A stretch of 30,128 bases of DNA from the IMG/VR virus record IMGVR_UViG_3300032143_000010, positions 1-30,128 of that record; one strand, 5' to 3'. The first letter of the stretch is position 1. Each line of letters begins with the position of its first letter. Source of the stretch: a virus (Duplodnaviria > Caudoviricetes). The position numbers and the translations under genes were made by a program. Below are positions 1-30,128 of this stretch, piece by piece. Below the pieces are notes generated by a model that saw nothing but the letters and a program-made list of their open reading frames with translations, was not told the origin of the DNA and did no database searches.

Positions 1-341
1 ACAAAACTTCGCCAGCCGCGATTCAAGGCTCTCCCAAAACCAAGCACTTCTTCTGAAATTCCAGCATCGGCTTCAGTTGGAGGCAACGGCCCGGCGGTGC
101 TTGGAATGAGATTCGTCGGGGCCTGCACCGCCAACACCGGCGGCGCATTCACGCTCACGTTGCTGATCGCAGGGGCGGGCGGCGGCCCCGGAACCAGCAA
201 CTCGTCCGTCGCCGGCGGAGTGAACCGCAGGGAGCGTCCTGTCCTCTGCGTTACGGGGGCAACAAGCTCATCCGTCTCCGGTGGTTTCCACGAGGGAGCG
301 GGAACAACCAGTTCGTCTGTGCTTGGCGGACTGAAAGCCAT
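1..341 (-). CDS. N-terminal part of a probable large ejection (internal virion) protein, runs off the window
   Basis: Not in the ORF track. ATG at 341 opens MAFSPPSTDELVVPAPSWKPPETDELVAP...FTPPATDELL...GFGRALNRGWRSF with no stop before base 1. Preceded by a promoter-like motif, and third in the run of genes after the nozzle and GNAT. Confidence 0.65.
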   Translation of the reverse strand, partial: MAFSPPSTDELVVPAPSWKPPETDELVAPVTQRTGRSLRFTPPATDELLVPGPPPAPAISNVSVNAPPVLAVQAPTNLIPSTAGPLPPTEADAGISEEVLGFGRALNRGWRSF

Positions 342-376
342 GAAGGCGCTTTACGGCATCCGCAAGAGGGTTTCAA
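342..376 (-). promoter_or_regulatory. Putative leaderless promoter TTGAAA-N17-TAAAGC-N6-ATG
   Basis: -35 at 371..376, -10-like at 348..353, ATG at 341. Same geometry recurs at 7555..7589 and 25133..25167. Confidence 0.6.
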
Positions 377-393
377 CAAAATTCGCTGAGGCG

Positions 394-1569
394 TCACCGC
401 TTGCGCCAGATGTTCCCCTGTGAGTCCAGGTACGCCGCACCGGGCGCAAGGGCATCGTAGTCCGCCTGCGAGTTCACGAGTGCCGGGTTGAACCGCGGCG
501 CGTTCGTTCCGCCCGGCATAACGATTCCGGAATAGACGGGAGACAGAGGCATGGCGCGATTCGTCCCCATCGGCGGGTAACTCTGCGGAGGCATTCCAAC
601 CGGGAACTGGTAGTTCGGAACGCGGCTGCTCGAAAGATTCATCGGCATTCCACCCCCAGCCGGCAAGGCGTACATCTCGCCGGTGTAGGGGAAACTTCTG
701 TCGGCACCGGCAGAGGGAGAGTTCGTCTGCATCGCGCGCATGTGGTACGGCGCTGGCACGGTGGAAAACGCCTTACCTCCCTCCCCGAAAATGATGTTGT
801 AAGCTCTGGGATTTTCCAGCGGTCCTTTGACGATACGTTCAAGTTGCTGTTTGTCCGCAAGCATCGCTTCGTACCCGCGTCGTTTTACAATGTAGTCGGG
901 ATTTTCATGCCTGAATCCATAGATGCCCCCCAATCGAGGAACCGTTCCCGGTAAAGGATTGCCGGATGAATCTTTTGCCAGTCCAAGTTCGGCGGCACGC
1001 TGTTTGATCTGGGAGTTGAGGTCCCAGTAGCTATTTATCAAGGAAGCCGCCTGCTTCGATTGCAAGTGGTTCGATTCCCCAATCTGTTGAATGTCTTGGT
1101 TTCTTGCCCAAAGTGCCTCCGTCCTTCCCGGAGCAAGATTTTTGTATCGTGCGGTGATTTGATCGGGACTGAGGAAAAGCCCCAAGTCGGCATCGTGTTG
1201 CGCGTCTCGATAGTCCTGCTCTTGGAGAGCCGAAAGTTTCGGGTTGGGTGCCTTTGCGGCTTGGTCCGCCAGCGCGTTGTACTGTCGCGTGCGAGCGACA
1301 ATCTCCGGCCCGGTGTACTGATTCTGAAATCTTCGAGACGCCGCTGCCTCGTCAATTCCGGCCTGCAACTGGCGTCCGGCCAAGACATCCGCCTGAGTTG
1401 CCCTGCCGATGTTGTACTGAAGCTGGCGGTTGGCGAGTTCGTTCTGCGCGGCGTATTGGTTGCGCGTCTGCATCATCTGAAAAGCGTTCTGCAATGCGCG
1501 TTCTCGATTCGCTTTTTGAGCTTCGTAGAACCCGAACGCTTGGCCGGGACTATCACCAAAGTAGGCCAT
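394..1569 (-). CDS. Putative ejection/internal virion protein (P22 gp20-like position)
   Basis: 391 aa, Gln/Ala-rich helical N-terminus, Pro/Met-rich low-complexity C-terminal part, terminal motif VNSQADYDALAPGAAYLDSQGNIWRK. Synteny supports the call. Confidence 0.55.
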   Translation of the reverse strand: MAYFGDSPGQAFGFYEAQKANRERALQNAFQMMQTRNQYAAQNELANRQLQYNIGRATQADVLAGRQLQAGIDEAAASRRFQNQYTGPEIVARTRQYNALADQAAKAPNPKLSALQEQDYRDAQHDADLGLFLSPDQITARYKNLAPGRTEALWARNQDIQQIGESNHLQSKQAASLINSYWDLNSQIKQRAAELGLAKDSSGNPLPGTVPRLGGIYGFRHENPDYIVKRRGYEAMLADKQQLERIVKGPLENPRAYNIIFGEGGKAFSTVPAPYHMRAMQTNSPSAGADRSFPYTGEMYALPAGGGMPMNLSSSRVPNYQFPVGMPPQSYPPMGTNRAMPLSPVYSGIVMPGGTNAPRFNPALVNSQADYDALAPGAAYLDSQGNIWRKR

Positions 1570-3253: not shown

Positions 3254-5020
3254 TCAGTAGTGCACGATCTCGTACCGTTCGAGTTCGGATGTCACCCGGC
3301 TGAATTCCGCGTCACCGTACAGGCCGTCAATCCTCAGTTCCATGTAGAGAATTTTTCCCCTGCGCAGGAAGCTCCAGCGAAGTGTCGCGCTCGGCTGCGT
3401 GTTCTTCGCCCGATGTTGTGCGGCCGTGTCCGGGCTGAGACACGTCAGATTCTTCAGGCTGTGCTGGTGCCATACGAGGCGGCAATCGTCGGTGTTCGGG
3501 TCCGCCACCTGCGCCGAGACGCCCACGCGCAAACCAATCTGACTCGGCGGCGGACTCTGCGGTGCCGCCAAGGAATCCAGTTCGAGTGAGCGCGCAATCA
3601 CGCCGGCATTCTTGACGAACAAGGGGGCGAATCTCAGGAGCGACGTGATGCCCTCCAACTCGTAGCTGCCTGCGGAACTCTGGTAGCTGGGCGAGACGGC
3701 GAACGTCGCCGACACCATCGGGCTGTCGGTGTAGTTCGCCTTGAACGCCTTCACCCGCAGGACCAACGGCTCGGCCAAATCAAAGGGCACGGCGTAGAGC
3801 GTCGAGGCCGCGGTTGGCGCGTGATTCGCGTCCATCTCCGCGGCGGCTTCTTCTGCGGTGTGCGTTTCAAGGAGGGTCTCAAGTTCATCAGCTTCATCCT
3901 CTGCGGTGTTGAGCGTGTAGCGGATCGCCGCGCCCGCCGTGGCGCAGGTCAGCGTGACTTCCACGCTGTCGGTGAAGTTCCCGCCATCGGGAGAAATCAC
4001 AGGGGCCGCGACCGCCGGCCAGCCTTCCGTCACGTAGCACTGCGGAATGATGACGGTCTGGTCGGATTCCTCGTAATCCACGTACTCCACAACGGACTCG
4101 GGCCATTCCTCCACGAGCCGGGGCACTACCGCGGAATCAAACGAGACCTCGAACGTGAACGTCTCCACGTCCCCGACTTCCATCGTGCCGATGTTCCACG
4201 TCAGAGTTTGCCCTGTGATGTCGTCGGGCACGGGCACGCCGGGGCCAACAAAGGTGACTCCCGTATCGAGAATATCGGTGACAACGACGTTGGTTGGATT
4301 CCCCGCCAGAGCATCGGCAATCTGCGCCAGGACATCTTCCAAATCCTCCGTGCTCGGTGACTCGTAGTAGTAGTTCGGAGCGGTGGCGATGGATTCCAAG
4401 ATCGTCTCTGCAAACACACCCGCGCCAGCAAAATCGGATTCCACTGTGTCCAGATTTAAGCCGATGGTGTAGATGCTCGTTCCTGCGGCCTTGGTCGCCG
4501 TCGCTTCACTTACCGCGGCGTTTGTGCAAGCGTTCGGGCTTGTCGAAGGAGTGGCACAGGAGACGCCGGCACAGGTCTTGTTGGCCACTCCGTCTGACAG
4601 GAGAATCATCACGGGGGCAACATCCTCGCGCCCATTCGCCACAAGTTCATCTTGGCCCGTGTGAATGCCCGCGCACATATTTGTGACGCCGTCTGCGGTG
4701 AGCGCGTTAATGGCAATCTTGACGCTGGCGAAGTCGGTTGTCAGAGCCGAGCGAAGCGTGGCCGTCGTTGCAAATGAAGTCAGACCCACCTTGTCCTGAT
4801 CCGCATCCAACAGGTTAATGAAGGCTATCGCCGCGGCCTTCATGTCTATCAAGGGATCGCCTGCCATTGATGTTGACCCGTCCAAGACCAACATGACATC
4901 CACCGGCTCGCGCCAGTCAGCGTCCCCGAGGCACTTCACCACGAGTTCAATCGAGGCGTGCTCGAACGTCGCCAGCGTGGTTGCCCGTTTCTCGACCGTG
5001 ATGTAGGGAGGGGTGGCCAT
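3254..5020 (-). CDS. VWA + DUF11-like + Fn3-associated (CHB_HEX_C-like) protein with nozzle-like C-terminal domain
   Basis: MIDAS motif VLDGSTSM...T...LSDG. DUF11-like NVVVTDILDTGVTFV...TLTWNIGTMEVGDVETFTFEV. Fn3-associated APVISPDGGNFTDSVEVTLTCATAGAAIRYTL...LRVKAFK...SPMVSATF. The last ~145 aa are beta-rich and end LRWSFLRRGKILYMELRIDG. Confidence 0.8.
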   Translation of the reverse strand: MATPPYITVEKRATTLATFEHASIELVVKCLGDADWREPVDVMLVLDGSTSMAGDPLIDMKAAAIAFINLLDADQDKVGLTSFATTATLRSALTTDFASVKIAINALTADGVTNMCAGIHTGQDELVANGREDVAPVMILLSDGVANKTCAGVSCATPSTSPNACTNAAVSEATATKAAGTSIYTIGLNLDTVESDFAGAGVFAETILESIATAPNYYYESPSTEDLEDVLAQIADALAGNPTNVVVTDILDTGVTFVGPGVPVPDDITGQTLTWNIGTMEVGDVETFTFEVSFDSAVVPRLVEEWPESVVEYVDYEESDQTVIIPQCYVTEGWPAVAAPVISPDGGNFTDSVEVTLTCATAGAAIRYTLNTAEDEADELETLLETHTAEEAAAEMDANHAPTAASTLYAVPFDLAEPLVLRVKAFKANYTDSPMVSATFAVSPSYQSSAGSYELEGITSLLRFAPLFVKNAGVIARSLELDSLAAPQSPPPSQIGLRVGVSAQVADPNTDDCRLVWHQHSLKNLTCLSPDTAAQHRAKNTQPSATLRWSFLRRGKILYMELRIDGLYGDAEFSRVTSELERYEIVHY

Positions 5021-5026
5021 ACGCTT

Positions 5027-6625
5027 TTAGTCCGCCGGCGGTGCCAGGAAATGCTCAATTCCCAATCCTTCCGGGTTCTGGCAAATCTCGCGGTAGAACA
5101 CGCCGCCGAGTTGTTTCAGGCACCAGTCCTGGGAACTCGCGGCAACCCACTTCGCCTCGCTCTTGCACGCCTTGCAGATGTCATCGAGAATTTCGCCGTC
5201 GAGCAGGGCGCAGAGCGAATCGCTCGATGCGGCAGGCTGCGTCCAATCCTCAACCAGCACGCCATCCACGTCCACCGTCTGATCGGTGTAAATGTGGTTC
5301 GGGCCTACGAACCCGTCGGGAAGCTCGAACATCGGGCGAGGCAACCCCTCAAAGACGTAGCCGTGCCCCAGAGCCGTTAGCCCCTCCACCGTGCAAATCC
5401 CATTCTCAATGATGAAATCCCGGATGGTCGGCGTCCGTTGCGGACTGTAGTTGCAAAAGGCCGTGAACCCGTGATCCACCACGTCGCAGGTCTTGTAGCT
5501 CGTGTTGATGCGCAGCGAGACGTTCGGGCACTCATTTTCCTCATCCACTTCCGCGATGCTGAACATCACTTCATCTCCGTTCAGTCCGCCGACGTGGACC
5601 TCGCAGTTCGTCGCGTCAATGTTGTCGAACAAAAGCGTCGTGGCCCGGTGCAGCCACTCAGGACGATCCGGGTTGGCGTAGAGCGGACTGAACACGTTCA
5701 GACCGTCTTGATCCGCGAACAGATGCACGTCCCCGAGATTCACCAGCATGTTCGGGAAGGCCAAGACACCGCTGTTTTCGTTTTTCTCCGCGCTGTACAC
5801 CCGCCTGAAGGCAAAGGACTGCGCCCCGCCAATCACCGACATCTCCCAGATGCCATGCGTCGTGTAGATCAGGAACACGTTGCCAAGGACTTCGCCGGCC
5901 AGAATCGTCTCGTGGGGATAGAGGTCGTAGTAGCCCGTGATCGAAGCCTGCTTGGCCGGATCGAAGCTCGTCGGGTTCGCGTAGTTCGACCACAGAATAC
6001 GATTGCCGTACCGCTGCGAGTCCATCTCCACGTTGGCGAAGAACAGGCAGTTGGCGAACGACCAGACGCACCGGGCACGCCGGAGGCCAATCAAATCGAA
6101 ATCATCAAACTCATAGAGCGATTCACCCTCGATGCCAGTCTGCTCCAAGATGTGGTACTTCGGTTTGTCGAAATCGTTCGTGAACGCCAGGTAGTCCCCC
6201 AGACATGCCGCCTTGAATCGTGGCGCCGACGCACTCGTTGCCGGGACGCCTCCAAACCCTGTGCCGAGAATCTTGTAGTTCCCGGAGTACTCGTTCAGCC
6301 GAGCGATGCAGGATTGATTCGCCAGGAACAACGAGCGCACCTGCCGCATGGACGTGGCCGGATACAACAGCGTAACAGGTTGCCGGATGCGACTTCCGAA
6401 CAGGAGAAGTTGATCGTGGAAATCCTCGTTGTTGTACTCAACCGCGATGTCGGTTGGACTCAGGAACTTCTGAAAGCCTGTGCCCCGGCGGAGCTTCCCT
6501 TCCCCTGTGGTCTGGAAGTTCTGCCTCATTCTGACGGCGCCCTGCGGCAGCGAATCGGGAGAGGAACGCAGGTCCAGCACTCCGGTCAACGGCGCGAGCG
6601 AAAGGTCTTTGGTGTTGGAGGCCAT
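5027..6625 (-). CDS. Tail nozzle / packaged-DNA stabilization protein (P22 gp10 / T7 gp12-like), apparently lacking its C-terminal domain
   Basis: N-terminus PLTGVLDLRSSPDSLPQGAVRMRQNF...GKLRRGTG and internal NRILWSNYANPTSF, VFLIYTTHGIWEM are beta-propeller nozzle-type segments. Synteny supports the call. Confidence 0.75.
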   Translation of the reverse strand: MASNTKDLSLAPLTGVLDLRSSPDSLPQGAVRMRQNFQTTGEGKLRRGTGFQKFLSPTDIAVEYNNEDFHDQLLLFGSRIRQPVTLLYPATSMRQVRSLFLANQSCIARLNEYSGNYKILGTGFGGVPATSASAPRFKAACLGDYLAFTNDFDKPKYHILEQTGIEGESLYEFDDFDLIGLRRARCVWSFANCLFFANVEMDSQRYGNRILWSNYANPTSFDPAKQASITGYYDLYPHETILAGEVLGNVFLIYTTHGIWEMSVIGGAQSFAFRRVYSAEKNENSGVLAFPNMLVNLGDVHLFADQDGLNVFSPLYANPDRPEWLHRATTLLFDNIDATNCEVHVGGLNGDEVMFSIAEVDEENECPNVSLRINTSYKTCDVVDHGFTAFCNYSPQRTPTIRDFIIENGICTVEGLTALGHGYVFEGLPRPMFELPDGFVGPNHIYTDQTVDVDGVLVEDWTQPAASSDSLCALLDGEILDDICKACKSEAKWVAASSQDWCLKQLGGVFYREICQNPEGLGIEHFLAPPAD

Positions 6626-6628
6626 TGC

Positions 6629-6919
6629 CTATTTTGGTTCGTACTGCGCTTCAAACTGATACCACGGATACGCGCCAGAGAAACCATAGCCGGGATAGCT
6701 CCCCTCGACTCCGGGAGCCGAAGTAACGTAGTCGCCTAGGTTTACTGTGATGTCCCCTTCAAGAAGGTGGATCAGGCCGTGCTCTGGAACTCCACCCGCA
6801 GCAGCAACGTGTTCGATTTCAGGAAATCCATCTCCCGCACGGTATCGCTCTCCCAAATACCTCTGCGCCTGAACCAACGTCAGGACCTCCGGGCGTTCTT
6901 TGTAAATCGCGCCGGTCAT
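6629..6919 (-). CDS. Hypothetical protein
   Basis: 96 aa, ATGA-coupled to the tail collar gene. Confidence 0.6.
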   Translation of the reverse strand: MTGAIYKERPEVLTLVQAQRYLGERYRAGDGFPEIEHVAAAGGVPEHGLIHLLEGDITVNLGDYVTSAPGVEGSYPGYGFSGAYPWYQFEAQYEPK

Positions 6920-7554
6920 GCCCGAATGTAAATAAAGACCGCGAGATACGGCGGTATGTTATTGTGCGCCTCTGCACTCACAGGCGGCGTTCCGCTTGTA
7001 GGATCGCCTCCACCCTCCTCAGTGACCCCATTATAATCAGGAGGGCTTGTCGAAGTCTCCTCCCACAAAAACCCAAACTCTCCGGCGTTCGGACTGTTAT
7101 CCTTGGGCACCGTAAATGGATGGGTGTGAGGGGCGAGTTCTTCGAGCGTCAAGACGTGCTCCGCCTCTCCTCCGGTTGAAGCCAACGGTTTGGTGCCGCT
7201 CGTGCCTATCGGGAATCGGTCCTGAAAGTCCGGGATGTTGAATGTGTTCACGCCGTCTCCAGGGCCGAAGGTCGTTCCAATCACTCCGAACAGATTCACA
7301 TAGGTAGTGCGCGACACCGCACGGCCATTGCAGAGGAGCCTCCCCGTCTCCGTCAGTTGCGCGGCGGAGAACTCAAGCGTGCCGATGCCCAAGACGGCGG
7401 GGTTCAGGTTGCCATCGGCGTCCAGAAGCCAGTTGACCAGTTTGTAAAGGAGGGCTCCTCTCCAACTCAGGGCCTTGTTGAACCCAGAGCAAAGCTGGGC
7501 GGTGGTGTCCACCATTGCCGCTTTGAAATCATTCGGCGTTACGGGTGCGCTCAT
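6916..7554 (-). CDS. Phage tail collar domain protein (short fiber)
   Basis: LLCNGRAVSRTTYVNLFGVIGTTFGPGDGVNTFNIPDFQDRFPIG, GGEAEHVLTLEELAPHTH and AHNNIPPYLAVFIYIR are hallmark tail-collar motifs. Confidence 0.9.
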   Translation of the reverse strand: MSAPVTPNDFKAAMVDTTAQLCSGFNKALSWRGALLYKLVNWLLDADGNLNPAVLGIGTLEFSAAQLTETGRLLCNGRAVSRTTYVNLFGVIGTTFGPGDGVNTFNIPDFQDRFPIGTSGTKPLASTGGEAEHVLTLEELAPHTHPFTVPKDNSPNAGEFGFLWEETSTSPPDYNGVTEEGGGDPTSGTPPVSAEAHNNIPPYLAVFIYIRA

Positions 7555-7595: not shown

Positions 7596-8852
7596 TTAGT
7601 GTTCCGGAAGAATTTCAACTCCCTCACTGGTGGGCACGATGAAGCGCCCCCCCCCTTCAATCCACTGGGAATTCTTGGAGATGATCTCGTCGGTGAAAGC
7701 CCACGCGAACAGGATTGCGTAGCCGGGGCGGTCCCGGAGCAGGGCGCCCTCGTCGGTGATCGGGATGTCGCTGCCGGGAGAATACTTCCACTGCTTCTGC
7801 GGGGTGTTGTCGCAGATGAACGCCACCTCCGTCCGCCTGAACTTGCAGGCGTTGACCCAGACGGTGCTCTTGGCGGCAGCCCCATACCCACAAACGAGTT
7901 TCCCGTGATTAACCACCCTCTCCACAACCTCGCGCAAACTCTTGATTTTACGAGCGCAATCTGTCTGAAAACGCTTCCAATCATCCACGGTGATATTTTC
8001 ATCCTCGATGAATTCCTCCACGATTTTCCGGTTCGGAAACGGCGATCCGCGTTTGCGGAGGAATAGCACGATACTCCCGCCGTGAATCGAAACACGGACG
8101 ATGTTGACGATCTCGAATCTTGTCCTCCGCAGCAATGCCGCCATCGCCCTTAACGTCAGATAACTCAGGTGTTCATGATAGCACTGGTCGAATTCCAAAC
8201 CCCGCAACGTATCACCGCAGTAGGGAACCTCGATCACCACGCATCCCGATTCCGTCGTGCAAATCTCGCAGGCTTGCATGAAACCCAGCCAGTCGTCTGC
8301 ATGACAAAAGACGTGACGGGCGATGATGCAGTCAAACGGCCCGATCTTCCCGGCAATCTCTGGATCGAATACCGCCGGTACGGTCGGAACGCCCTGCGCC
8401 TCGGCCAGCTTCACGAGGTTCATGGCCGGGTCAATTCCAAGAACCCTCTCGGCCCCGTTCGCTTTGATGTACGCCAGAAAATCTCCGTCGTTGCTCCCGA
8501 TCTCCAGAACCTCCTTCGGAGCACACTCCTCCCGGATGGCCTTCCACAGATGCTCGAAATGCCGGCGCATCGTCTCGCTCTTGGACGTGACGTAGTTGTA
8601 CTTCGAGTACAGAATCTCCGGCCTCACCACGACGCTCAGTTGCGCCAGGGTGCAGTTCGGACAGTAGAGAACTTCCAGCGGCGCAAAGCCGGAGCGTTCC
8701 TCGGTTTCGTTGCAGAAATCATTGGCGAGGGGTTGCAGGCCCAGATCAAAGACGGGCAGAAGCCGCTGGGTGAACGGCTGGCATTTGCTTCCGGGTGCAT
8801 TGGGGTTTGTGCCGTAACCGCAGGCGCGGCAGACTGTGTGTGGTTTATACAT
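7596..8852 (-). CDS. NDP-hexose 3-C-methyltransferase family (TylCIII/TcaB9-like)
   Basis: Start at ATG 8852 (MYKPHTVCRACG). Zn ligands CRAC...CPNC, DLGLQPLANDF, SAM motif LEIGSNDG, HVFCH, FDQCYHEH, YGAAAK, KQWKYSPGSDIPI, GGRFIVP. Confidence 0.92.
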   Translation of the reverse strand: MYKPHTVCRACGYGTNPNAPGSKCQPFTQRLLPVFDLGLQPLANDFCNETEERSGFAPLEVLYCPNCTLAQLSVVVRPEILYSKYNYVTSKSETMRRHFEHLWKAIREECAPKEVLEIGSNDGDFLAYIKANGAERVLGIDPAMNLVKLAEAQGVPTVPAVFDPEIAGKIGPFDCIIARHVFCHADDWLGFMQACEICTTESGCVVIEVPYCGDTLRGLEFDQCYHEHLSYLTLRAMAALLRRTRFEIVNIVRVSIHGGSIVLFLRKRGSPFPNRKIVEEFIEDENITVDDWKRFQTDCARKIKSLREVVERVVNHGKLVCGYGAAAKSTVWVNACKFRRTEVAFICDNTPQKQWKYSPGSDIPITDEGALLRDRPGYAILFAWAFTDEIISKNSQWIEGGGRFIVPTSEGVEILPEH

Positions 8853-8853
8853 A

Positions 8854-9546
8854 TTACGAAGGGCTTGAATCAAGCGCCCACAAGACCGTGTGCGCGGGTC
8901 CGCCAAAATGGTTCACAAAAGCGTGCGGGTCGGGCTGGAACGGAGGCCAGGCAATCATGGTGTTCCACTCGATAGAAAGGATCGAAATTCTGATGCCCGG
9001 CCAGTTGTAGGCGACCAGGTTGATTGTGGCCTGTTCCTCATACATAGCCAACTGGTTATCCAGATTGACCGGCTCGTGATCGTAAGCGAACGCCATCATC
9101 TCGCGGACGGCATAAGACTGTTGACACATCCAGAAGCCCGCATTGAAGAATTCCTCCATCGGCGGCAGTTTGGGACTTCCCCCGAAGCGCCCCGAGCATC
9201 TGGCTGCACATGCGGAAAGGGGCTTGTGATAGGCCACTTCTCTCCAATCGTCCTGCCGGCATTGAGGCTGGTAATCGGACACAGCGTACAGGGTGTCTGG
9301 CTGGACGCAGAGGTCAAACACGTTTGGCGCGTGAGTGGAAATCACCGTGTCAGCATCAAAACAAGCCACGGCGTCATAGGCAGCCAGGCGGGCAGCCCCA
9401 AGCGTCTTCGCGCAACTCGGGTATGCCAGGACCGGAGCAAGTATCTCGTGATAATCACAATCCCATCTCTGCGCCGCGGCGATGAACGAGTTGCGAGAAT
9501 GGGGTCTCAGAAACGCATTGATGTTGACGGTAAAGATGCAGTTCAT
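8854..9546 (-). CDS. GT-A glycosyltransferase (GT8-like)
   Basis: DxD motif FDADTVI, FFNAGFWM, EEQATIN, WN, VNHFGG. Confidence 0.8.
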   Translation of the reverse strand: MNCIFTVNINAFLRPHSRNSFIAAAQRWDCDYHEILAPVLAYPSCAKTLGAARLAAYDAVACFDADTVISTHAPNVFDLCVQPDTLYAVSDYQPQCRQDDWREVAYHKPLSACAARCSGRFGGSPKLPPMEEFFNAGFWMCQQSYAVREMMAFAYDHEPVNLDNQLAMYEEQATINLVAYNWPGIRISILSIEWNTMIAWPPFQPDPHAFVNHFGGPAHTVLWALDSSPS

Positions 9547-10511
9547 AGTCGGTAAAATTCCTCAACGTATCCATCGCGCATCATAAAAGGCGCACGGTAA
9601 ACCAATCTGAATCCTCCATGACGATTGATCGCCGAACGCACACTGCTTTGCGTTGTTCCGCCTAGCGGCTGATTGCTTTCGTGGTTGCAGGAATAAAACA
9701 TGCCGTGCTCGGATAGACATTCGTGAATGAATCTGATGTAACCATCCTGATTGGCGAGGGTCATTTCAGGAAGGCTGTTGACGTTCACCATGAGATCGTA
9801 TTGTGACTTTGCCGGCTCATAGTCAAAGCACGAATACCAGCGGAACACTGCGCTGGGATTTGGCGGTTCACCATCCAACCACATGATGCCTTCTCCCAGT
9901 GCTTTCGCCAGAAAGTATGCCGACAGCACGGCAGTAGTGGGAATGTCAATGATCGTGTAATCCCTGACGCCGTGGCTGAACGCCGCCAAAGCAAATCCAC
10001 CCGTTCCGGCGCCTATCTCCAGGATTCGTTTCGGCGGCGGATTGATGAGGGATGAAACGGTGAACCACTGAGCCAACTTTGAAAGATATGTGTAGGGAAT
10101 ACACTTGCTGTTGTCTTTCAAAAGAAAACCGTCTGGAACACGGATTGGGCCAAGAACTTCTTCGATCTGTCTTTTCAATTCCAGCCCATCCTTGGGATTC
10201 CAATTTTCGTCGGGACTTGGATTCAGGGGATGCTGGATGGGGACAACTCCAATGCGCCGGGCCAATCTAGGAAAGTAATCGGTGGTAATTGTTTTTCCAA
10301 AGTATTCAGGTATTGGGGTGTCCAACCCATGCAAAGATGTTATGGTACTTGGAGGGGAATCAAAAATCGCCTGAACAGCACAAATATCCCCCCGCTCCAA
10401 GGCATCGTTAAGCGTCCTTCCAAAGTATTGTAAAATACCGGCCCACATTTCCGATATTTCACCCGCCGTGGCAGATGACCTTTTGTAGAAGTTTATCAGG
10501 CGTTGAATCAT
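9543..10511 (-). CDS. Putative sugar O-methyltransferase
   Basis: Start at ATG 10511 (ATGA overlap with the rSAM stop). ILEIGAGTGG, YTIIDIP...LSAYFL, DLMVNVNSLPEM, GMFYSCNHE, R-x-PFMMRDGYVEEFY. Confidence 0.8.
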   Translation of the reverse strand: MIQRLINFYKRSSATAGEISEMWAGILQYFGRTLNDALERGDICAVQAIFDSPPSTITSLHGLDTPIPEYFGKTITTDYFPRLARRIGVVPIQHPLNPSPDENWNPKDGLELKRQIEEVLGPIRVPDGFLLKDNSKCIPYTYLSKLAQWFTVSSLINPPPKRILEIGAGTGGFALAAFSHGVRDYTIIDIPTTAVLSAYFLAKALGEGIMWLDGEPPNPSAVFRWYSCFDYEPAKSQYDLMVNVNSLPEMTLANQDGYIRFIHECLSEHGMFYSCNHESNQPLGGTTQSSVRSAINRHGGFRLVYRAPFMMRDGYVEEFYRL

Positions 10512-11560
10512 AGATTCCATTTGTCGAAGCTCACCAGGTTGGTGTAAAGGTTGAACCGATACCGCAAACATTCCTTGCACAAAGGATGCCCCTTCCGGGC
10601 GTCGCTCATTTGCTGCTGCGTCATGTCAAGATAGTTCCCAATGTCAAGACGGCGATCCTGTTCGATGGCGCACAGCGTCACTTTTCCGTCCCAACGAATG
10701 TAGCAGCCAATGTCCTTGATCGGGCACTCCTCCGGGATGGGCCACATGGAGTAGAATGCCCTTGCCCATTTGGGTGAGAAGATGAGCCTTTGAATCTGTT
10801 CCTGATATTGCCGTGTTGGCGTTGACAGAATTTCGTTCCAATCAAAACCCCTGGCACACTTGTCCATCGTTGGAACGCCGCCGGTTTCCAGCTTCTCCTG
10901 ACTGCGCAGGTAGGCAAGGGTGTTTTCAAGCGAAATGGCGCGGGCGGGTGACGGTTGCCATTCAAATCCAAGGCCGGTGCAGAATTTCCTGGCCTCCTCG
11001 ATTTCCCCGCGATTGTCTGTGTAAATGTGAAAGTTCGCAATGACTCGAATGGGATGTTTTTCGCGCAAGAAGGCCACTTTGAGCAGGTTGGCTTTTACCT
11101 TTTCAATGTCGCCGCCGCAATGCGAACGCGCATACGTCTCCTGTTTCCATCCACTGAAACCGACGAGCAGGAAAAGCGGTTTCGCCGCCATTGTTTCCTC
11201 CAGGCGTTGCACGTAGTTCAAGTTGGAAGAAAGCTCGAATTTCAACCCCCGCCGGTTGGCGGCGGCAATGATTTCTGGCAGCCACGGATACAGGAACGGC
11301 TCCGAGTTTCCGTAACATCGGATCGTCGCATGAGGATTCTCGGTCTGAATCTTGTCGTATATCCTCTCAACAAGTTCCACTGACATCCTGCCGTGAGGGT
11401 TCTCGTAGTTTGCCGTGTTTCCGGCGAAGCACAGCCCGCATCTCAGATTGCACCGGCTGTCCACTTCCAGATGAAACCAGCGGCAGATCGTGGTTTCATC
11501 TGGCTTCATTGGGCAGACAGTTTCGTAATAGGGCCTCCAGTTTTCGGGTATGTCTTTCAT
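10508..11560 (-). CDS. Radical SAM protein with SPASM/twitch domain
   Basis: CNLRCGLC (CX3CX2C), SEPFL, LSSNLN, and C-terminal CPIKDIGCYIRWDGKVTLC...IGNY...CKEC. Confidence 0.9.
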   Translation of the reverse strand: MKDIPENWRPYYETVCPMKPDETTICRWFHLEVDSRCNLRCGLCFAGNTANYENPHGRMSVELVERIYDKIQTENPHATIRCYGNSEPFLYPWLPEIIAAANRRGLKFELSSNLNYVQRLEETMAAKPLFLLVGFSGWKQETYARSHCGGDIEKVKANLLKVAFLREKHPIRVIANFHIYTDNRGEIEEARKFCTGLGFEWQPSPARAISLENTLAYLRSQEKLETGGVPTMDKCARGFDWNEILSTPTRQYQEQIQRLIFSPKWARAFYSMWPIPEECPIKDIGCYIRWDGKVTLCAIEQDRRLDIGNYLDMTQQQMSDARKGHPLCKECLRYRFNLYTNLVSFDKWNL

Positions 11561-13077
11561 CGCATTATTCTTCCGTTTCTGTCAAAACCAGCGTGAGTGA
11601 TGTTGTCCGTGATAAAAGAGATGTCAACCTTGGTCCTGGCATCAAGGTCGCGCCAATGGTCCGAAAATCTCCACCAAACCAGCATGTTGCTTTGGTCCCC
11701 CCTACGAAATATATTGGGGGGCTTTCTCCAATCCCACCATTCATATTCCCCATCCCACGTCACAAACAGCGCGCGTTTTCCAATCGAATGAACGAATTTC
11801 CAGAATGTCCGTTCGGGATGGCGCTTGTCCTGCTCGAAGCTGTATCGGTCTGCGTTACAGGTTACAGGCCAGGGATAACTTGCGAGCAAAATCGGGTCAC
11901 ACCAAAATGTCCCAGTGTTCAGATGCGGCATTTCCTGATATGAAGTGCTGGACCCATAAACGCCCGGCCCATGCTTGAGTCTGGCTTGGACCATGCGCTC
12001 CATCCAACCCTTGCGCCACAAATAGGTGTACGATCCGAAACAGATTGTCAGTGCCGCGATGGATTGTTTTGCGACTGCGATGAACGCACCGAGGTCGTAA
12101 CCCGAATTGTCATGCTCAAAAAACTTCACTTTGGGAAGTGACCCAAACAATCTGCGCGCACCTTCTGTAATTGGCGCTCCATTGCATACGATGACTGTGC
12201 TGTGAGGATATTCCGGTGGAAAACGATGATACGACTCAATGAATTTGCTGGCTAAATCGTAGTACTTTCCTTCAGTGCGAACCAGTCCTGGTTTTTCTTC
12301 CTCGACCACTTCTCCGCCGTCCAAGGGGTAGATGTAAACGAGTTCTATTGCCGGCGCGGTATCCGGCCAATAGCCAAGGTCTGGAACGGACGGAGACAAG
12401 GTCCGCCCGACCGGAGGCGCTTCGCTACTCGCAATCATGTCCCAGCCTGTCTTGTACTTCACCGGGCAATCCTTGCGCCCGTGAAAGCCAAACGAGGGCC
12501 TGGTGTTCCCCAGTATCTCCGTTGAGAACCGCAGGGCTACCTCCGTCGGAGCGAAACGAATCCCCTGGCGCTCCAGTTGAGCGCGAAATAGATGACAGAC
12601 GCAGAGATCGGACGGATACGCCAGATTTACAGGAATTGAAAGTTTCAGCTTCAGGTCGAGCAACTTCTTGGATTCCATGCAGAACCCTCCATTGCCAACC
12701 CGGCCGTCCGGCCACGGGGCGCCGATGTAATCATAGGCCATGAAGTCGTCAGACCAAAGCTCAGGGGAGATCGGGAACCCGTCCTCGTGAACCGACATTG
12801 CGAATGCCGTGTGAATCTTCTTCGGGACAGAGCACATGTGAAACCGATTCCACTCCTTGATCGTCAGATTCGGAATTCGCTCGACGCGCCAGTGAGCCGG
12901 GGCCGATGGAGGGGCCAGGTGGGTCAGCAGGAGAACCTCGTCAAACTCAAAGTGCCGCTCGCAGAACTTCAAGACGCGGATCGTCCGGCTCAGGTACTCG
13001 GCGTCATTGTGCGCGCAGGACCAGAGTGTCACGCCCTTCAGGCGGCGCCGCTGTTTCTGGATGACAGTCGAAGTCAC
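11557..13077 (-). CDS. DUF5672-like GT-A domain fused to a second glycosyltransferase-like domain
   Basis: N-terminal half VHEDGFPISPELWSDDFMAYDYIGAPW...VGNGGF...ALRFSTE...FGFHG. C-terminal half IVCNG...HDNSGYDLGAF...PHLNTGTFW resembles rhamnan-synthesis-type GTs. Confidence 0.75.
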   Translation of the reverse strand: MTSTVIQKQRRRLKGVTLWSCAHNDAEYLSRTIRVLKFCERHFEFDEVLLLTHLAPPSAPAHWRVERIPNLTIKEWNRFHMCSVPKKIHTAFAMSVHEDGFPISPELWSDDFMAYDYIGAPWPDGRVGNGGFCMESKKLLDLKLKLSIPVNLAYPSDLCVCHLFRAQLERQGIRFAPTEVALRFSTEILGNTRPSFGFHGRKDCPVKYKTGWDMIASSEAPPVGRTLSPSVPDLGYWPDTAPAIELVYIYPLDGGEVVEEEKPGLVRTEGKYYDLASKFIESYHRFPPEYPHSTVIVCNGAPITEGARRLFGSLPKVKFFEHDNSGYDLGAFIAVAKQSIAALTICFGSYTYLWRKGWMERMVQARLKHGPGVYGSSTSYQEMPHLNTGTFWCDPILLASYPWPVTCNADRYSFEQDKRHPERTFWKFVHSIGKRALFVTWDGEYEWWDWRKPPNIFRRGDQSNMLVWWRFSDHWRDLDARTKVDISFITDNITHAGFDRNGRIMR

Positions 13078-13532
13078 GGATTGGCTCGCTTCGCCTCAAG
13101 TTGTTTCAGGTGCCAGTGAAGCACTTTCTCCGCCCACGATCCCAGAACCGGATACTCGTGTGGCATATCCTCCGCGCTGCGCCGCAGATAAAAGGAAATG
13201 GCGTTCTCAATCTCAGCCGGCGTGTAGCTCTCCTCACGCTCGGGAGGGCCGGGAAGATCGGCGTCGTGAATCCCGAGAATGTCCAGCGTGCTGACAATCT
13301 CCGTGCCGTCGCCAAGCTTATGGCTCCCGGTTTTCTCCAGGGTGACGCGATCCCCGATTTTGACTTGGCCCGGCACTTTGGGACCGCTCCCCAGGAGCAC
13401 AACGTCCGCCTCGAACGTCTGCCCCTTTCCACGAGCGCGGCGAGGGAGGAAGATAAGTCTTGAGGCCGTTGTCTCCGGTTCCTCGATGCGACGAATGACG
13501 ATGCGGTTTCCGAGTAGTTTGGTTATGGTCAT
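13074..13532 (-). CDS. groES: GroES-like co-chaperonin with C-terminal extension
   Basis: KLLGNRIVIRRIEEPETTASRLIFLP...VVLLGSG...VKIGDRV...DILGI matches the GroES pattern PLxDRVIV...KSAGGIVL...VLAVGxG...VKVGD...DILA. About 60 extra C-terminal residues. Confidence 0.8.
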   Translation of the reverse strand: MTITKLLGNRIVIRRIEEPETTASRLIFLPRRARGKGQTFEADVVLLGSGPKVPGQVKIGDRVTLEKTGSHKLGDGTEIVSTLDILGIHDADLPGPPEREESYTPAEIENAISFYLRRSAEDMPHEYPVLGSWAEKVLHWHLKQLEAKRANP

Positions 13533-13649
13533 GGTTCAGTCAGATGTGGTGTTGTTCTGTTATTTGTCTTTGCGCGGGTGAGCTTGGTCGTTAGACCGCC
13601 TGGCGAGTGCCGCCTTGATGTGTTGTCATAAATCGTGGCCGTCAGACGA

Positions 13650-13847
13650 CTACGGACGCGCCACCGCGACCATGCCACCCATCTCCACCACGACCGCTTG
13701 CCCGCCGTTGGCACACATCCTCACTACCTCACAGAGGCACCATTCGCGATATGTTACATTCCCGTATTGGGATTGCAGCATTGATTTTGGGTCTCCCCAG
13801 ACTGTGATGTTTTTCCTGGTATCCAATGTTTGTTTTGTTGTTGTCAT
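13650..13847 (-). CDS. Small hypothetical protein
   Basis: 65 aa, ATGA-coupled to the GT4 stop. Confidence 0.55.
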   Translation of the reverse strand: MTTTKQTLDTRKNITVWGDPKSMLQSQYGNVTYREWCLCEVVRMCANGGQAVVVEMGGMVAVARP

Positions 13848-14884
13848 ATCATTTCAAATTCCTCCAGCACGCAGGCCAGCGACAAATTCGACGCCTCCCA
13901 ACTCAGGTGCGCAACCTTCTGTGAGGCGACGATGCCGATGTAGGTGATGTCTGTGGGGTCCGACTTGGCAACCGCCCGCATACACTCGATCAGGGATTCC
14001 TCCGTCGGCTCGGCCCAGTGCCCGCAACCCGCGTAAGCGTCTCTGGCGGGTTTGAGCTTGAAATCCAGTGCCCAACCCATGTCCGACTCGAAAAACTCCG
14101 CCACGCCCCCAAAGCGGACGGAAATGAGGGGTCTGCCGACGGCGAGAGATTGCAACTGCATCAGACCAAATCCCTCCCCCTTGGCCGCGGACACGAAGCA
14201 CGTCAGGCTCTTGAACCATGCCGCAACCTGCTCGTCGGTCCAGTATTCCTGGTGAATCAGAATCCGAGGATCGTCCACCTTCTTGATGGGACAATCCGAC
14301 CACGCCTTGACCTCCAGCCGGACGTTGGATTCGTCAGGGAATGCACGGCTGAAAGCGTCAATGACTTCGTTCAGGCCCTTGCGGATTCCACCGCTGGCCA
14401 TTCTCCCAGCCGCTCCGAACCGAATGACGCGCGGAAAGTCGGCGGGCATCTCGGAGTACTTGAAGATGTCGCTCAGGATTCCCAAGGGAACGACGCGAAT
14501 CGGCTTCTTCACACCGACCGCGCTCAGGCAGGACGCATTCCACCAGCACGGCACAATCACAACCTCGGCCCGGTTCAGCAGGTGAACCCCCATCGGGGGA
14601 GGCTTCGTGGTCTCGATCATGGTGAAGTAGGCCGTTTTCTTTCCGGGCGTCGGCACAAAGTTTGGGGTATGAAGCAACAGTTCCCACTCCTCGGGCTGGG
14701 GACCCGTCACGAATCGCTGCTTGATGTCGAGTGGGATTTTTGAACCGAACAGTTCGGACTGAGTGATGGGCCGGATCGCAACATAAACGTCCAGCAGCCG
14801 GCTCAGGTCGCGCACAATCTGAATCGAGTGCTTGCCAAACCCCATGAAGGCGTTGATGTCGCCGAGGAACGTGAGGCGCTTCAT
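13844..14884 (-). CDS. GT-B glycosyltransferase (GT4-like)
   Basis: GFGKHS, FTMIETTK, VVIVPCWWN, VVPLGI, RKGLNEVIDAF, FVSAAKGEGFGLMQLQSLAVGRPLI. Confidence 0.88.
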   Translation of the reverse strand: MKRLTFLGDINAFMGFGKHSIQIVRDLSRLLDVYVAIRPITQSELFGSKIPLDIKQRFVTGPQPEEWELLLHTPNFVPTPGKKTAYFTMIETTKPPPMGVHLLNRAEVVIVPCWWNASCLSAVGVKKPIRVVPLGILSDIFKYSEMPADFPRVIRFGAAGRMASGGIRKGLNEVIDAFSRAFPDESNVRLEVKAWSDCPIKKVDDPRILIHQEYWTDEQVAAWFKSLTCFVSAAKGEGFGLMQLQSLAVGRPLISVRFGGVAEFFESDMGWALDFKLKPARDAYAGCGHWAEPTEESLIECMRAVAKSDPTDITYIGIVASQKVAHLSWEASNLSLACVLEEFEMI

Positions 14885-16267: not shown

Positions 16268-17350
16268 TTAATTTCCCCAGCCCGGCCAGCGGTCGTCTCG
16301 CCACGGGGCGGGATACGCTTCGGTCTCGGCAAGGGGTGCCGGGTCGGGAACTTGCGCGCTGAAATACACTCCGTAGTCGGCCTCAGAGGCGCAGGTCTGC
16401 TTCATCATCATCGAGAGGTAATGCTGCGCGTCGTCAATCTGGCTCCCATCCGTGATATTCACGAAATATCCTCCGGTCGCCATGTTCCGCAGCAGCACAT
16501 ACCCGTCTGCTTTGGCGCGCAAGCCGATGCAGATGATGATGCCCCCGGATTCCTTGAAGGCCCGGGCCGCATCCAAGAGCTTCGCCGACTGCTCCAGACT
16601 GAGCATCGGCCGGTTCTCGCCATCCGACAGGATGAGAATGACCTTCCTGTCCTTCGTGCGGGAGGCCAGCGTTTTGACTGCGAAGTCGAAGGCATTGCGC
16701 ATGTCCGTGCGCCGCTGTGTCGAGGGAACCGCCATGACCGTTTCGCCGAGAGCGTCCGCATCCGCCGATTCGTCGAGCAGGAGACTCGCCGGTTCGTTGA
16801 ACGCAATGACAAGCTGACCGTCCAGGTCCTCCCGCAGATGTTCGATCACGCTGGCGGCCATCGCCTTTGCCGCCGTGAGTTTCGTCGAAACACCCCCACC
16901 GAAATCCTGTAGCATTGAACGCGAGTTGTCCATCACGACCGCACTGACCACGCTGATGTTATCGCAACAAGATGCTCCGGCCAAGACTGTGAGTTGCGCA
17001 AAGCCAAGGCAAGGGTCGCCCTCGTTCGGATACCACGTCGCACAGATGGTGACGATGCCTGGCGCCACCGCTGTCACCAAACCCGTTTCTGTCACGGTCG
17101 CAATGCCGGGGCTTGAACTGGTGAACACGTAGTTGTCCTCCACCAGCCTTTCCGTTGTGTCAGACAGGAAGGCGACGCACTGCAACCGGCCTCCGGCGCA
17201 AAGCGTGGCAGTTTCCGGCTTCACCACCAACCGCAATGAGTTCGGGCACAGCGAAGGATTGGCCGCCGCGAAGTCCGCATCCGAACATCGGGGATCCTCA
17301 ACCAAGCCGCCGGTGGCTGGAGAGATGAATCTGTTGCGGTTAGGCATCAT
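16268..17350 (-). CDS. Ig-like (Big_2) + VWA domain virion-region protein
   Basis: FTSSSPGIATVTETGLVTAVAPGIVTICAT (Big_2), VMDNSRSM...RTD...ILSDGEN (MIDAS). ATGA-coupled to the adaptor gene. Confidence 0.85.
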   Translation of the reverse strand: MMPNRNRFISPATGGLVEDPRCSDADFAAANPSLCPNSLRLVVKPETATLCAGGRLQCVAFLSDTTERLVEDNYVFTSSSPGIATVTETGLVTAVAPGIVTICATWYPNEGDPCLGFAQLTVLAGASCCDNISVVSAVVMDNSRSMLQDFGGGVSTKLTAAKAMAASVIEHLREDLDGQLVIAFNEPASLLLDESADADALGETVMAVPSTQRRTDMRNAFDFAVKTLASRTKDRKVILILSDGENRPMLSLEQSAKLLDAARAFKESGGIIICIGLRAKADGYVLLRNMATGGYFVNITDGSQIDDAQHYLSMMMKQTCASEADYGVYFSAQVPDPAPLAETEAYPAPWRDDRWPGWGN

Positions 17351-29100: not shown

Positions 29101-30128
29101 CTAAGGGCCGATGTGGAGGTTTACCACGTTCAAAGTGCCGATGGTCGTCACCGTGCCCGATGCCACGGGTGCGTTCGTGCTGCCGTCATCGTAGGCGCCG
29201 ATGTCCCACGTCCCGGCGCGTGTGTTGCCGGCAAAGTCGGTGGTGAAGATCGCGCTTAGATCGGCCCCTGCGTCAATCGCGTAGCCACCGGATTTGAGTG
29301 TGAAATCACGGTTCGCCGCGTCGGCAAAGGTGGTGCTCGCGCCATTCACCTGCCCCGGTGTGCCGCTGGGCACGCCCGCGCCGGTGTTCGCGTAGTAAGC
29401 GTTGTTCCCCTCGCCAGTCGTGACATGATCCGCCGAGAAATAACACGCTTCCCAGATGTTGTTGGTCAGGGTGCAGTTCGCTGTGTTCGTGCCGAAGATG
29501 CGCACCTGGGCCAGCAAGGTCGCACCCGAGATTCCGTAGAAGGTGTTGTTCGCAATCCAGATGTTGGTGCAGGGGATATTGGCCGAAAGATTGTTGATGA
29601 CTCCAGGTGAACTGACACTGAACACCGTCGCGTTTGTGCAGTGAAAGATGTTGTTGTAAATCTGGTAGTCATTGTGTGTCACGCCCACCCCGTCCATCAG
29701 TGCGATGTATCCGGTGCCGAGGATGTTCCGAAAGATGTTATTGCGGAAGATGCACCAGCGGCTGGGCAGATTGTAGGACATCTGAATCCCCTGTCCATGC
29801 CACCCAACGCCGCTGGACCCACCCGTTTCACTGATGACGTTGCTCTCAAACAGCAACCCGTAATCGCTGTAACTGGTACCCACCAGACCACCCAGCGTCA
29901 GGCCGTTCTTATCCACACCATGAATCCAACAAGAGGCAATGTGCAACCCCTTCTGCGGACTGGAAGGGTTGCTGTTGTAAATTCCGTCGCCGCCCTTCAC
30001 CTGTGTTTTGACGCCCGTGCCGCAAATTTCGAGATGGTAGAAGTGATACGGGCCGCCGCCATTTCCAGTGCCAATGGTGTTCGGCGGTTCGTTCACCCCA
30101 TCGTTGAATGTGTTGTAAATCTTGATGC
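29101..30128 (-). CDS. Right-handed parallel beta-helix protein (tailspike/depolymerase-like), 5' end off window
   Basis: Frame stays open to the window edge (IKIYNTFNDGVNEPP). Asn-ladder repeats FESNVI, IFRNNIF, IYNNIF, IANNTF, LTNNIW. C-terminal DFTLKSGGYAIDAG...DFAGNTR...WDIGAYD. Confidence 0.8.
   Translation of the reverse strand, partial: IKIYNTFNDGVNEPPNTIGTGNGGGPYHFYHLEICGTGVKTQVKGGDGIYNSNPSSPQKGLHIASCWIHGVDKNGLTLGGLVGTSYSDYGLLFESNVISETGGSSGVGWHGQGIQMSYNLPSRWCIFRNNIFRNILGTGYIALMDGVGVTHNDYQIYNNIFHCTNATVFSVSSPGVINNLSANIPCTNIWIANNTFYGISGATLLAQVRIFGTNTANCTLTNNIWEACYFSADHVTTGEGNNAYYANTGAGVPSGTPGQVNGASTTFADAANRDFTLKSGGYAIDAGADLSAIFTTDFAGNTRAGTWDIGAYDDGSTNAPVASGTVTTIGTLNVVNLHIGP

Follow-up and report, generated by a model that had tools for sequence, protein, structure and literature searches.

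A split podophage nozzle gene carrying a VWA-Ig-Fn3 module: predicted two-chain re-assembly and likely accessory adhesins

The split nozzle locus

The window, a stretch of 30,128 nucleotides from an uncultured phage with a short tail (IMG/VR record IMGVR_UViG_3300032143_000010), carries on its minus strand two adjacent open reading frames, A (5027..6625, 532 aa) and B (3254..5020, 588 aa), which lie where a preliminary description had placed them. A encodes the front part of a nozzle, namely the N-terminal platform strands, the beta-propeller, a Cys-rich insertion and the first strand of a cut hairpin (A 510-517; 5075..5098), as judged from PHROG 3287, a family profile and the model of a one-chain relative, P0008; the hairpin strand was taken from the predicted interface list of the A+B complex. 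Pfam and homologue alignments show that B consists of a ~443-aa cassette fused ahead of the rear nozzle part (B 445-588; 3254..3688), to which alignments, structure comparison and complex prediction assign the second hairpin strand and the C-terminal platform beta-sandwich.

A ends in ...FYREICQNPEGLGIEHFLAPPAD and a TAA stop, and B opens 6 nt further on with its ATG, in the same frame (junction 5018..5029). The abrupt stop of A, and the opening of the next frame with VWA, DUF11-like and Fn3-associated domains, agree between the preliminary description, Pfam and the reading of the junction; the VWA domains announced there in the plural are one per chain. A second genome (L005) has the same split with a 4-nt spacer and with B out of frame relative to A, the open frame of B overlapping the last 25 codons of A. 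The start Met of B is conserved in all four members of the split clade. The last ~10 residues of A are unrelated to the family and differ between two sub-clades, and TAA is an ordinary stop in the window genome. Because contigs from three of four runs bridge the stop of A without difference (the fourth run has no bridge), a sequencing or assembly error at this position is ruled out; no DNA joint skipping the cassette was found in the contigs of the four runs. Two further non-identical proteins, P0002 and P0003, end at the same site as A. The clade members share 59-86% identity and keep both frames open; the DNA of two of the four (the window and L005) has been seen, and a search for others as DNA returned only copies of these two. 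A search for expression found no RNA data set containing the locus, and the genome-bin labels of related contigs vary widely and were not used as hosts. Collectively, these observations show a nozzle gene cut into two neighbouring ones.

Both genes, cassette included, are under purifying selection. Between the window and L005, dN/dS is 0.18 for A, 0.12 each for the VWA and DUF11 domains, 0.25 for the Fn3 domain and 0.34 for the platform piece, the highest value, against 0.23 for the collar control, the dS values of the cassette (VWA included) being near saturation.

The collar gene (6916..7554, minus strand) encodes a 212-aa tail-collar-domain protein (Pfam Collar, E 6e-16; atlas), likely the ordinary short tail fibre. 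In most loci it lies upstream of the nozzle gene, and the split clade has retained it. The terminase and tail-collar genes, recognised by Pfam and PHROG, and a gene order conserved in related loci mark a virion morphogenesis module, in which portal, capsid and adaptor are putative labels given by size and order; the presumed adaptor had no match in the search.

The VWA-Ig-Fn3 cassette

The cassette opens with a segment common to secreted cellular proteins (B 1-35; 4916..5020), which by sequence likeness would form the first strands of an Ig-like (DUF11) domain hosting the VWA domain. The latter (B 41-232; 4325..4900; PF00092, E 2e-15, above cut-off) carries the MIDAS residues D47-x-S49-x-S51, T113 and D143, invariant in four of four clade members. 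The rear part of the DUF11-like Ig domain follows (B 239-332; 4025..4306; PF01345), its Pfam match being partial (B 242-294, E 8e-5, just under cut-off) and beginning at profile position 33 of 114. From this partial match and the conserved B 1-35, the VWA domain may be inserted in a discontinuous Ig-like domain. The last element is a CHB_HEX_C / Fn3-associated domain (B 336-443; 3692..4015; PF13290, E 2e-11, matched at B 344-440) with a 27-aa acidic insert (B 375-401) that is found in two of the four clade members.

In sequence the module resembles secreted bacterial proteins. B 1-331 is 37-47% identical to cellular proteins, and the nearest relatives of the module belong to the secreted type, with Thr/Pro linkers, and not to the cytoplasmic subunits of chelatases. 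Nozzle parts are absent from all 20 cellular look-alikes of the cassette, many of which open, as judged by eye, with a signal-peptide-like stretch. By the same inspection B has no signal peptide or sortase sorting signal; it begins at the module and ends in the platform. Among solved structures only 4jdu_A matched the cassette at E <= 0.001. As the GC (0.60) and GC3 (0.74) of the cassette match those of the genome (0.57-0.61 and 0.74-0.78), there is no sign of a recent entry, and no repeats bound the cassette. The other VWA gene of the phage (16268..17350) was rejected as its source, with no significant BLAST match (best E 0.07) and a weak profile match (3e-5). In the phage collection, tblastn matched neither P0008 nor B 1-335.

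Descent from a single nozzle gene

A matches PHROG 3287 (E 1e-16), and its family profile matches the VP1 nozzle gp16 (7e-12) and the Pa223 chain 9nwi_Y (6e-14). When relatives with both parts in one contiguous frame were looked for, B 443-588 aligned at the C-terminus of 89 of 98 homologues of A. Family-built profiles find the last residues of A and the beginning of the B tail on a single chain in 93 of the 98, with a gap of 7 residues between them in 80; the other five comprise three split-clade proteins and two fragments. The cassette interrupts the nozzle without loss of flanking residues. Further, the trees of both halves contain the same four-member clade nested among one-chain relatives (support 1.0 and 0.88). 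Since both halves have the same sister groups, replacement of the rear piece by a foreign one is ruled out: the rear piece of B derives from the native nozzle. The entry of the cassette into a loop of an ancestrally single gene is thereby supported, much as the preliminary description had it (an adhesin-type cassette of about 440 aa in a nozzle-gene loop).

Nozzle fold and predicted re-assembly

The model of P0008, a one-chain relative 56% identical to A, has a pLDDT of 91.5 and folds as a podophage nozzle (Pa223, VP1, SU10, P22). Its top Foldseek matches are all nozzles, and residues 1..670 align with Pa223 at a VIA Z of 28.8 (rmsd 3.0, 476 aligned). The central beta-propeller of podophage nozzles is thus present in the family of A; propeller-only chains align to ~44-513 of the model, ending near 513. 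The rear piece alone aligns best with the C-terminal platforms of nozzles (Pa223 410-513, Z 9.8, rmsd 2.2, 101 aligned; SU10 889-1005, Z 8.8; Sf6 gp8 373-472, Z 8.2), with a lead of no more than 1-2 Z units over jelly-roll folds of unrelated proteins (Z 7-8.1). The platform beta-sandwich of N- and C-terminal segments is found here with a narrow margin for B 445-588. Foldseek with the rear piece alone gave no match at E <= 0.001, the best being the VP1 nozzle (3e-3) followed by Eph receptors (4e-3). The proposal that the last ~145 aa of B are the terminal beta-sandwich of a nozzle is borne out by alignments and structure comparison, though not by Foldseek at this threshold.

Complex prediction of A with the rear piece scored 0.86 against 0.00 for the best of three controls. 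The mark of the A+B pair was attained in 116 of 157 solved pairs and in 2 of 215 mismatched ones (counts that hold roughly, own alignments having been used). At least 81% of the contacts are shared between runs, with a partner pLDDT of at least 81. The trans contacts are predicted between A 510-517 and B 453-456, across the cut hairpin, and between the rear piece and A 7-48. Part of this score may reflect resemblance to solved nozzles, which the halves of a split gene would be expected to show. A is predicted to hold the propeller to its end, and B to give the hairpin strand and the remainder of the platform. With the nozzle gene cut in two and its rear piece fused behind a borrowed module, the tail is probably made of two chains, in keeping with the two-chain nozzle of the preliminary description. 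None of the findings named there as speaking against it was made: A alone modelling as a complete nozzle, or a tail of B with no nozzle similarity and never contiguous with A in homologues. Its display of VWA at the tail tip did not hold. The cut falls just after the propeller and just before the platform half, and the platform, in the published domain descriptions, is the adaptor-binding part and faces the head (PMC6702177; 10.1101/2025.06.11.659172); these descriptions and the aligned ranges make the cut head-proximal and rule out tip display.

Comparison with known systems

The preliminary description knew of no characterised example. A split nozzle has, however, been solved in Pseudomonas phage A1002, where two nearby genes encode the nozzle-base gp42 and the nozzle-rope gp39, with another cut site and no VWA domain (PMC13730344). 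As reported there, gp39 completes the platform in trans and begins with a long extension that includes an Ig-like domain. The present nozzle likewise comes from two genes, the rear chain beginning with a long extension that has an Ig-like part and being predicted to complete the platform in trans. In A1002 the cut lies before the last propeller strands (gp39 contains propeller-C 469-519), whereas here it lies after the propeller; the A1002 extension is described as a 300 A rope binding 11 fibre dimers, whereas here globular VWA, DUF11 and CHB_HEX_C matches are found. Further, the present family includes sisters in one chain and a one-chain relative with an insertion in that hairpin, and there are cellular proteins that resemble the cargo.

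The best sequence-profile and structure matches are the Pa223 tail hub gp59 (PDB 9NWI) and the VP1 nozzle gp16 (PDB 8ZKK), each a single chain of 513-521 aa, 12-15% identical and lacking a cassette. Pa223 gp59 is described as a propeller with an adaptor-binding domain made of segments 2-46 and 403-512, and its gene adjoins that of a 215-aa fibre, gp60 (10.1101/2025.06.11.659172), an arrangement resembled by the collar gene beside the present nozzle. T7 gp12, the SU10 nozzle and P22 gp10 share the fold. In T7 gp12 a fibre-dock domain lies on the outer surface between propeller end and platform (PMC6702177), which is the position of the present cut, and the SU10 nozzle carries inserted Ig-like domains (PMC9509320). 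Unlike here, these three are one chain each, and their inserts, as described, are structural or dock separate fibres and include no VWA domain.

The module may also be compared with the pilus tip adhesins RrgA and GBS104, in which a MIDAS-bearing VWA domain lies in a discontinuous Ig-like domain at the end of an Ig stalk (PMC7893114), the layout proposed here. The anchor differs, being a phage nozzle rather than a sorting signal, and among solved structures the cassette has no sequence match to RrgA or GBS104 at E <= 0.001. For RrgA itself, collagen binding by the VWA domain is described as unproven (PMC7893114).

Fission across the family

Splitting is not confined to this clade: 19 of 60 complete loci are split, at three sites, and the cargo at other splits and inserts is Ig, LamG and He_PIG in a census covering the loci in hand. 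One one-chain relative (L019/P0083) has an unrelated domain in the same hairpin, called VWA-like for its DxSxS motif and atlas features (0.90-0.94); Pfam gives no VWA match, and the insert is a lead of moderate strength. A common origin with the cassette was detected neither by BLAST nor by the cassette profile. The VWA cargo, the one-chain VWA-like insert in the same hairpin and the repeated fission across the family are new here.

Proposed working of the tail

The preferred reading, which is probably correct, is a split nozzle whose rear piece has a VWA-Ig-Fn3 module fused before it, whose chains are predicted to re-assemble and which would carry six MIDAS-bearing arms, likely as accessory adhesins. 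A would supply the propeller and the N-terminal platform strands and B 445-588 the rest of the platform, with the cut hairpin predicted to re-form in trans between A 510-517 and B 453-456, and six A+B pairs would make the hexamer under the adaptor. Each arm would start at the free N-terminus of B and hang from the outer shoulder nearer the head, a placement taken from aligned ranges rather than coordinates, with VWA outermost. This would be the position of the T7 gp12 fibre-dock domain, a likeness valid for the T7 topology only, since the fibre attachment loop of Pa223 (354-387) lies one step before this hairpin. Through a Mg or Mn ion, the VWA domain may bind an acidic ligand of the host envelope or of a biofilm matrix. 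Such adhesion would add to that of the ordinary short fibres, for which the likely gene has been retained. The VWA arms likely help the tail stick to surfaces. Fission would let an end-to-end Ig arm project from a tight hairpin, and a domain with neighbouring termini, such as the L019 insert, would fit within one chain; this rule is loose, as split forms also carry cargo of propeller-like and LamG-like kinds.

Alternative explanations

A two-chain nozzle could also bear a VWA arm that is no adhesin, serving instead as a structural brace or an assembly or chaperone-docking domain, or being cut off in maturation. MoxR-type ATPases have VWA partners, chelatase-type VWA proteins are among the NCBIfam matches of B (well under the cut-off), and with the contig ~37% complete a partner ATPase could lie outside it. 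Such a role is unlikely, however, given the secreted-type relatives of the module, the Ig and Fn3 spacers that accompany VWA, the kinds of cargo carried elsewhere in the family and the absence of any AAA ATPase from the 27 ORFs scanned in the window. Much less probable still is the production of A and B, at least partly, as a single ~1120-aa chain with the cassette as an in-chain insertion. The shared frame in the window would allow readthrough, the overlap in L005 would allow frameshifting, and L019/P0083 offers a one-chain insertion at the same hairpin. Yet the sister genomes would require two different recoding events, and the out-of-frame split of L005 makes readthrough unlikely as a general mechanism. 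The kept start Met of B, the ordinary stop and the differing ends of A also speak against a single chain, and an end-to-end Ig arm would be poorly suited to a hairpin tip.

Interruption of an essential gene without loss of flanking residues is also what a mobile or self-splicing element (intron, intein), removed at the DNA, RNA or protein level, would leave. This is very improbable: no Hint, homing-endonuclease or reverse-transcriptase domain appeared in Pfam, PHROG and NCBIfam scans of A and B, nor any endonuclease or recombinase family in B (Pfam, NCBIfam). The cassette has no terminal repeats, the contigs of the four runs hold no joint skipping it, and, as a surface-type protein, it is kept by purifying selection in its own right. 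Decay or mis-assembly of the nozzle gene, for which the raised dN/dS of the platform piece might be cited, is scarcely credible when independent contigs bridge the stop, four divergent members keep both frames open and dN/dS stays well below 1 throughout.

Implications

The split nozzle with VWA arms suggests that an essential, DNA-sealing tail part tolerates cuts at defined loops and re-assembly from separate chains. An evolutionary series from plain nozzle to one-chain insertion, two chains and three chains is visible in one family, so that the way in which the split nozzle of A1002 is proposed to have arisen becomes testable, and natural display sites on podophage nozzles are mapped. A wider reading, tentative and rather doubtful, is that in a large uncultured podophage family the nozzle is a display scaffold that has repeatedly captured modules of bacterial surface proteins (VWA, Ig chains, LamG, propellers) at a small number of outer loops, the essential gene being broken into two or three self-complementing chains that give the arms a free end. 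Here the MIDAS-dependent VWA would be a receptor-binding protein, and the unrelated VWA beside the propeller of L019 would converge on the integrin alpha-I layout, in which a VWA domain sits beside a propeller. No description of a VWA adhesin on a phage tail was found in the open-licence literature; if true, a metal-dependent adhesin of this sort would represent a new type of device for adsorption.

A nozzle gene divided in two

The window (30,128 bases, from a virus record about 37% complete) contains terminase and tail-collar genes together with two adjoining minus-strand genes, ORF A (5027..6625, 532 aa) and ORF B (3254..5020, 588 aa), the front and rear parts of a podophage tail nozzle. 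ORF A ends in TAA, and ORF B begins 6 nt later. Contigs from three of the four sequencing runs compared span this stop codon unchanged. Pfam places a VWA domain at B 41-232, a partial DUF11 at 242-294 and CHB_HEX_C/Fn3_assoc at 344-440, with no match downstream of residue 440. A homologue search with A, in which 8,000 candidates of 292-931 aa were scored, yielded 98 proteins, mostly of about 670 aa. By alignment, B 443-588 matches the C-terminus in 89 of these, which bears out the preliminary description of a nozzle gene split by an inserted cassette. The relatives with both parts in a single ORF, for which it had called a search, were also found: with family profiles made from 84 of the same 98 proteins, the C-terminal end of A and the beginning of the B tail share one chain in 93 of 98, with 7 residues between them in 80. 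The five exceptions are P0001-P0003 and two fragments.

A related locus, L005, has both genes (77% and 63% identical to those of the window, with consecutive accessions for the nozzle pair), while two further split pairs, P0002/P0100 and P0003/P0102, are known as proteins and putatively paired by the equal lengths of their contigs. One four-member split clade was recovered in the front-half tree (72 rows, FastTree, midpoint root, 23 duplicate or incomplete loci omitted; support 1.0) and in the rear-half tree (31 input proteins; support 0.88). In both it sits among one-chain relatives, for example P0008, P0005 and P0018, so that the split is derived and the rear piece native, in line with an ancestrally single nozzle gene. 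The window stretch occurs in sediment metagenomes (at least half of its words in 9 of 20 rows, four of these 9 being possible sources).

Predicted structure and site of the cut

The family profile matches the nozzle chain 9nwi_Y of phage Pa223 (6e-14) and the VP1 nozzle gp16 (7e-12). The one-chain relative P0008 was modelled with a pLDDT of 91.5, and its best Foldseek matches are the nozzles of Pa223, VP1, SU10, A4, P22, Sf6 and T7. Nozzles cover the full model (Pa223: Z 28.8, rmsd 3.0, 476 residues aligned, span 1..670); unrelated propellers cover only about residues 44-513. The last ~145 aa of B had been proposed to form the terminal beta-sandwich of the nozzle, and B 445-588 modelled by itself (pLDDT 89.9) best matches nozzles over their final 100-120 residues, those of Pa223 (Z 9.8), SU10 (Z 8.8) and Sf6 (Z 8.2), narrowly above unrelated jelly rolls (Z 7-8.1). 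The suggested Foldseek comparison agrees in rank, with the VP1 nozzle first, but less so in strength, as E is just 3e-3. Because B 445-588 matches nozzle C-terminal ends, the models indicate that A by itself lacks most of this platform.

A two-chain nozzle had also been envisaged. Co-folding of A with B 445-588 gave a score of 0.86 against 0.00 for the best control. Among solved complexes 116 of 157 attain this mark, as do 2 of 215 mismatches, though these counts are only a rough guide here since our own alignments were used. Contact agreement between runs was at least 81%, partner pLDDT was at least 81, and the predicted contacts reproduce the intact fold: A 510-517 meets B 453-456, and A 29-37 and A 43-48 meet platform strands. 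Split-gene halves tend to score well because they resemble solved structures, so this predicted pairing shows compatibility, not binding.

Display of the VWA domain at the tail tip, as first proposed, does not fit the site of the cut, which falls between the propeller end and the platform. In Pa223 the head-to-tail adaptor is bound by the domain formed from residues 2-46 and 403-512 (10.1101/2025.06.11.659172), and in T7 gp12 the fibre-dock domain, exposed on the outside, occupies the stretch from propeller end to platform (PMC6702177); the cut therefore lies on the head side. In Pa223 and SU10 the fibre loop, an extension of a terminal blade, comes one step sooner along the chain; the correspondence with the T7 dock is therefore one of topology only.

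Origin of the cassette

Searching with B 1-335 returned 24 proteins at E <= 1e-10 from 8,000 candidates. Four are the clade members; of the other 20, none contains nozzle parts and 17 cover the greater part of the module with 36-47% identity. By eye, many of the 20 begin with a signal-peptide-like stretch and have Thr/Pro linkers later; Deltaproteobacteria, Binatia and Anaerolineae are among their source labels. B begins close to the would-be mature N-terminus of several of them. The DUF11 match in B lacks profile positions 1-32 and B 1-35 is conserved in cellular look-alikes, which suggests from sequence that the VWA may be inserted within an Ig domain, as in the pilus tip adhesin RrgA (PMC7893114).

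In P0116 (729 aa, 45.5-kb contig) the VWA-Ig module starts at residue 1 without a signal-like stretch and precedes PF11999; the protein may represent a further case of a phage employing the module, or its start may be mis-called. The Fn3-like domain of B contains an acidic insert of 27 aa (3818..3898, minus strand) in the window and P0100 but not in P0101 and P0102.

Split nozzles across the family

The census comprised 75 entries (74 loci, some near-duplicates, plus the window): 4 window copies, 11 cut by contig ends, 41 one-chain nozzles and 19 split nozzles. Five of the latter are split at the window's site (window, L005, L055-L057), eight near residue 335 and six at two sites. In the front-half tree the split forms fall in at least three separate lineages, the inner nodes of the third being weak. 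In L031-L043 (e.g. L032:3486-7090) the cut near residue 335 lies inside the propeller region, and the front piece carries 500-800 aa of Ig-like domains, which stand in tandem in L032-L043. L061, L063 and L066-L069 (e.g. L063:9989-14077) apparently encode the nozzle in three genes, the middle one ending LamG-like or propeller-like. The propeller-like stretch in L063/L066, and a similar domain forming its own gene between the nozzle halves in L055/L057, were called by eye and from one weak DUF5074 match. L056 carries LamG plus He_PIG cargo; L056, L059, L062 and L065 have a LamG-containing one-chain insert of ~350 aa near nozzle residue 70.

L019:9974-12844 (plus strand; protein P0083) has a 289-residue one-chain insert (~478-766) in the same hairpin as the window cut. 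It is VWA-like by motif (DESAS) and atlas features, with no detectable relationship to the cassette. Its propeller with inserted VWA-like domain is reminiscent of the integrin alpha-I layout. Tandem Ig arms were seen in split forms only, consistent with fission providing a free terminus for an end-to-end arm; the other cargo is found in split and one-chain nozzles alike.

Other features of the window

A second VWA protein (16268..17350, minus strand; Big_2 plus VWA, DNSRS motif) lies in the structural module, with relatives in the corresponding region of L002, L007, L009, L017, L018, L020, L023, L026, L029 and L049; VWA domains seem common on virions of this phage family. Inside the structural module, 7596..14884 (minus strand) encodes methyltransferases, glycosyltransferases, a radical SAM protein, DUF5672 and a GroES-like gene, possibly for virion glycosylation. 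The terminase gene (25217..26821) lies on the other strand (plus) and diverges from the presumed portal gene, as in L028, L054, L056, L058, L059, L063, L065 and L070. The gene at 29101..30096 (minus strand), likely cut by the contig end, has a choice-of-anchor Q match and repeat-like beta character, and its product is possibly a spike or surface protein. By eye, no obvious Shine-Dalgarno motif precedes most of the 13 minus-strand genes inspected, which may hint at the host group.

Proposed role of the VWA arm

We hold with high confidence that the split is genuine and both genes are functional. Decay of the nozzle gene is the least probable alternative: between the window and L005, dN/dS is 0.12 each for VWA and DUF11 (where dS is near saturation), 0.18 for A, 0.25 for Fn3 and 0.34 for the platform piece, against 0.23 for the collar control. 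The cassette as a removable element ranks just above decay; contigs of the four sequencing runs compared contained no cassette-skipping joint. Recoding of A and B into one chain stands second. The two genes share a frame in the window and the frame changes across the 4-nt spacer at L005. The foremost alternative is a VWA arm with a non-adhesive role. The start Met and all five MIDAS residues are retained in four of four B proteins.

It is quite likely that the arm is present on virions and, given that presence, we lean towards MIDAS-dependent adhesion. The window retains a 212-aa collar gene, likely a normal short fibre, and for this reason the arm would act in addition to fibres.

The belief that no example had been characterised is superseded, as a split nozzle has been solved in phage A1002 (PMC13730344), cut instead before the last propeller strands and bearing a fibre-binding rope. 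Searches of open-licence literature on VWA and phage tails and on split or heterodimeric nozzles listed neither a nozzle with a VWA domain nor a solved split nozzle other than that of A1002. The window's nozzle is thus a genuine, new variation on a recently described theme, in a family whose evolutionary series of nozzle splitting is unusually clear.
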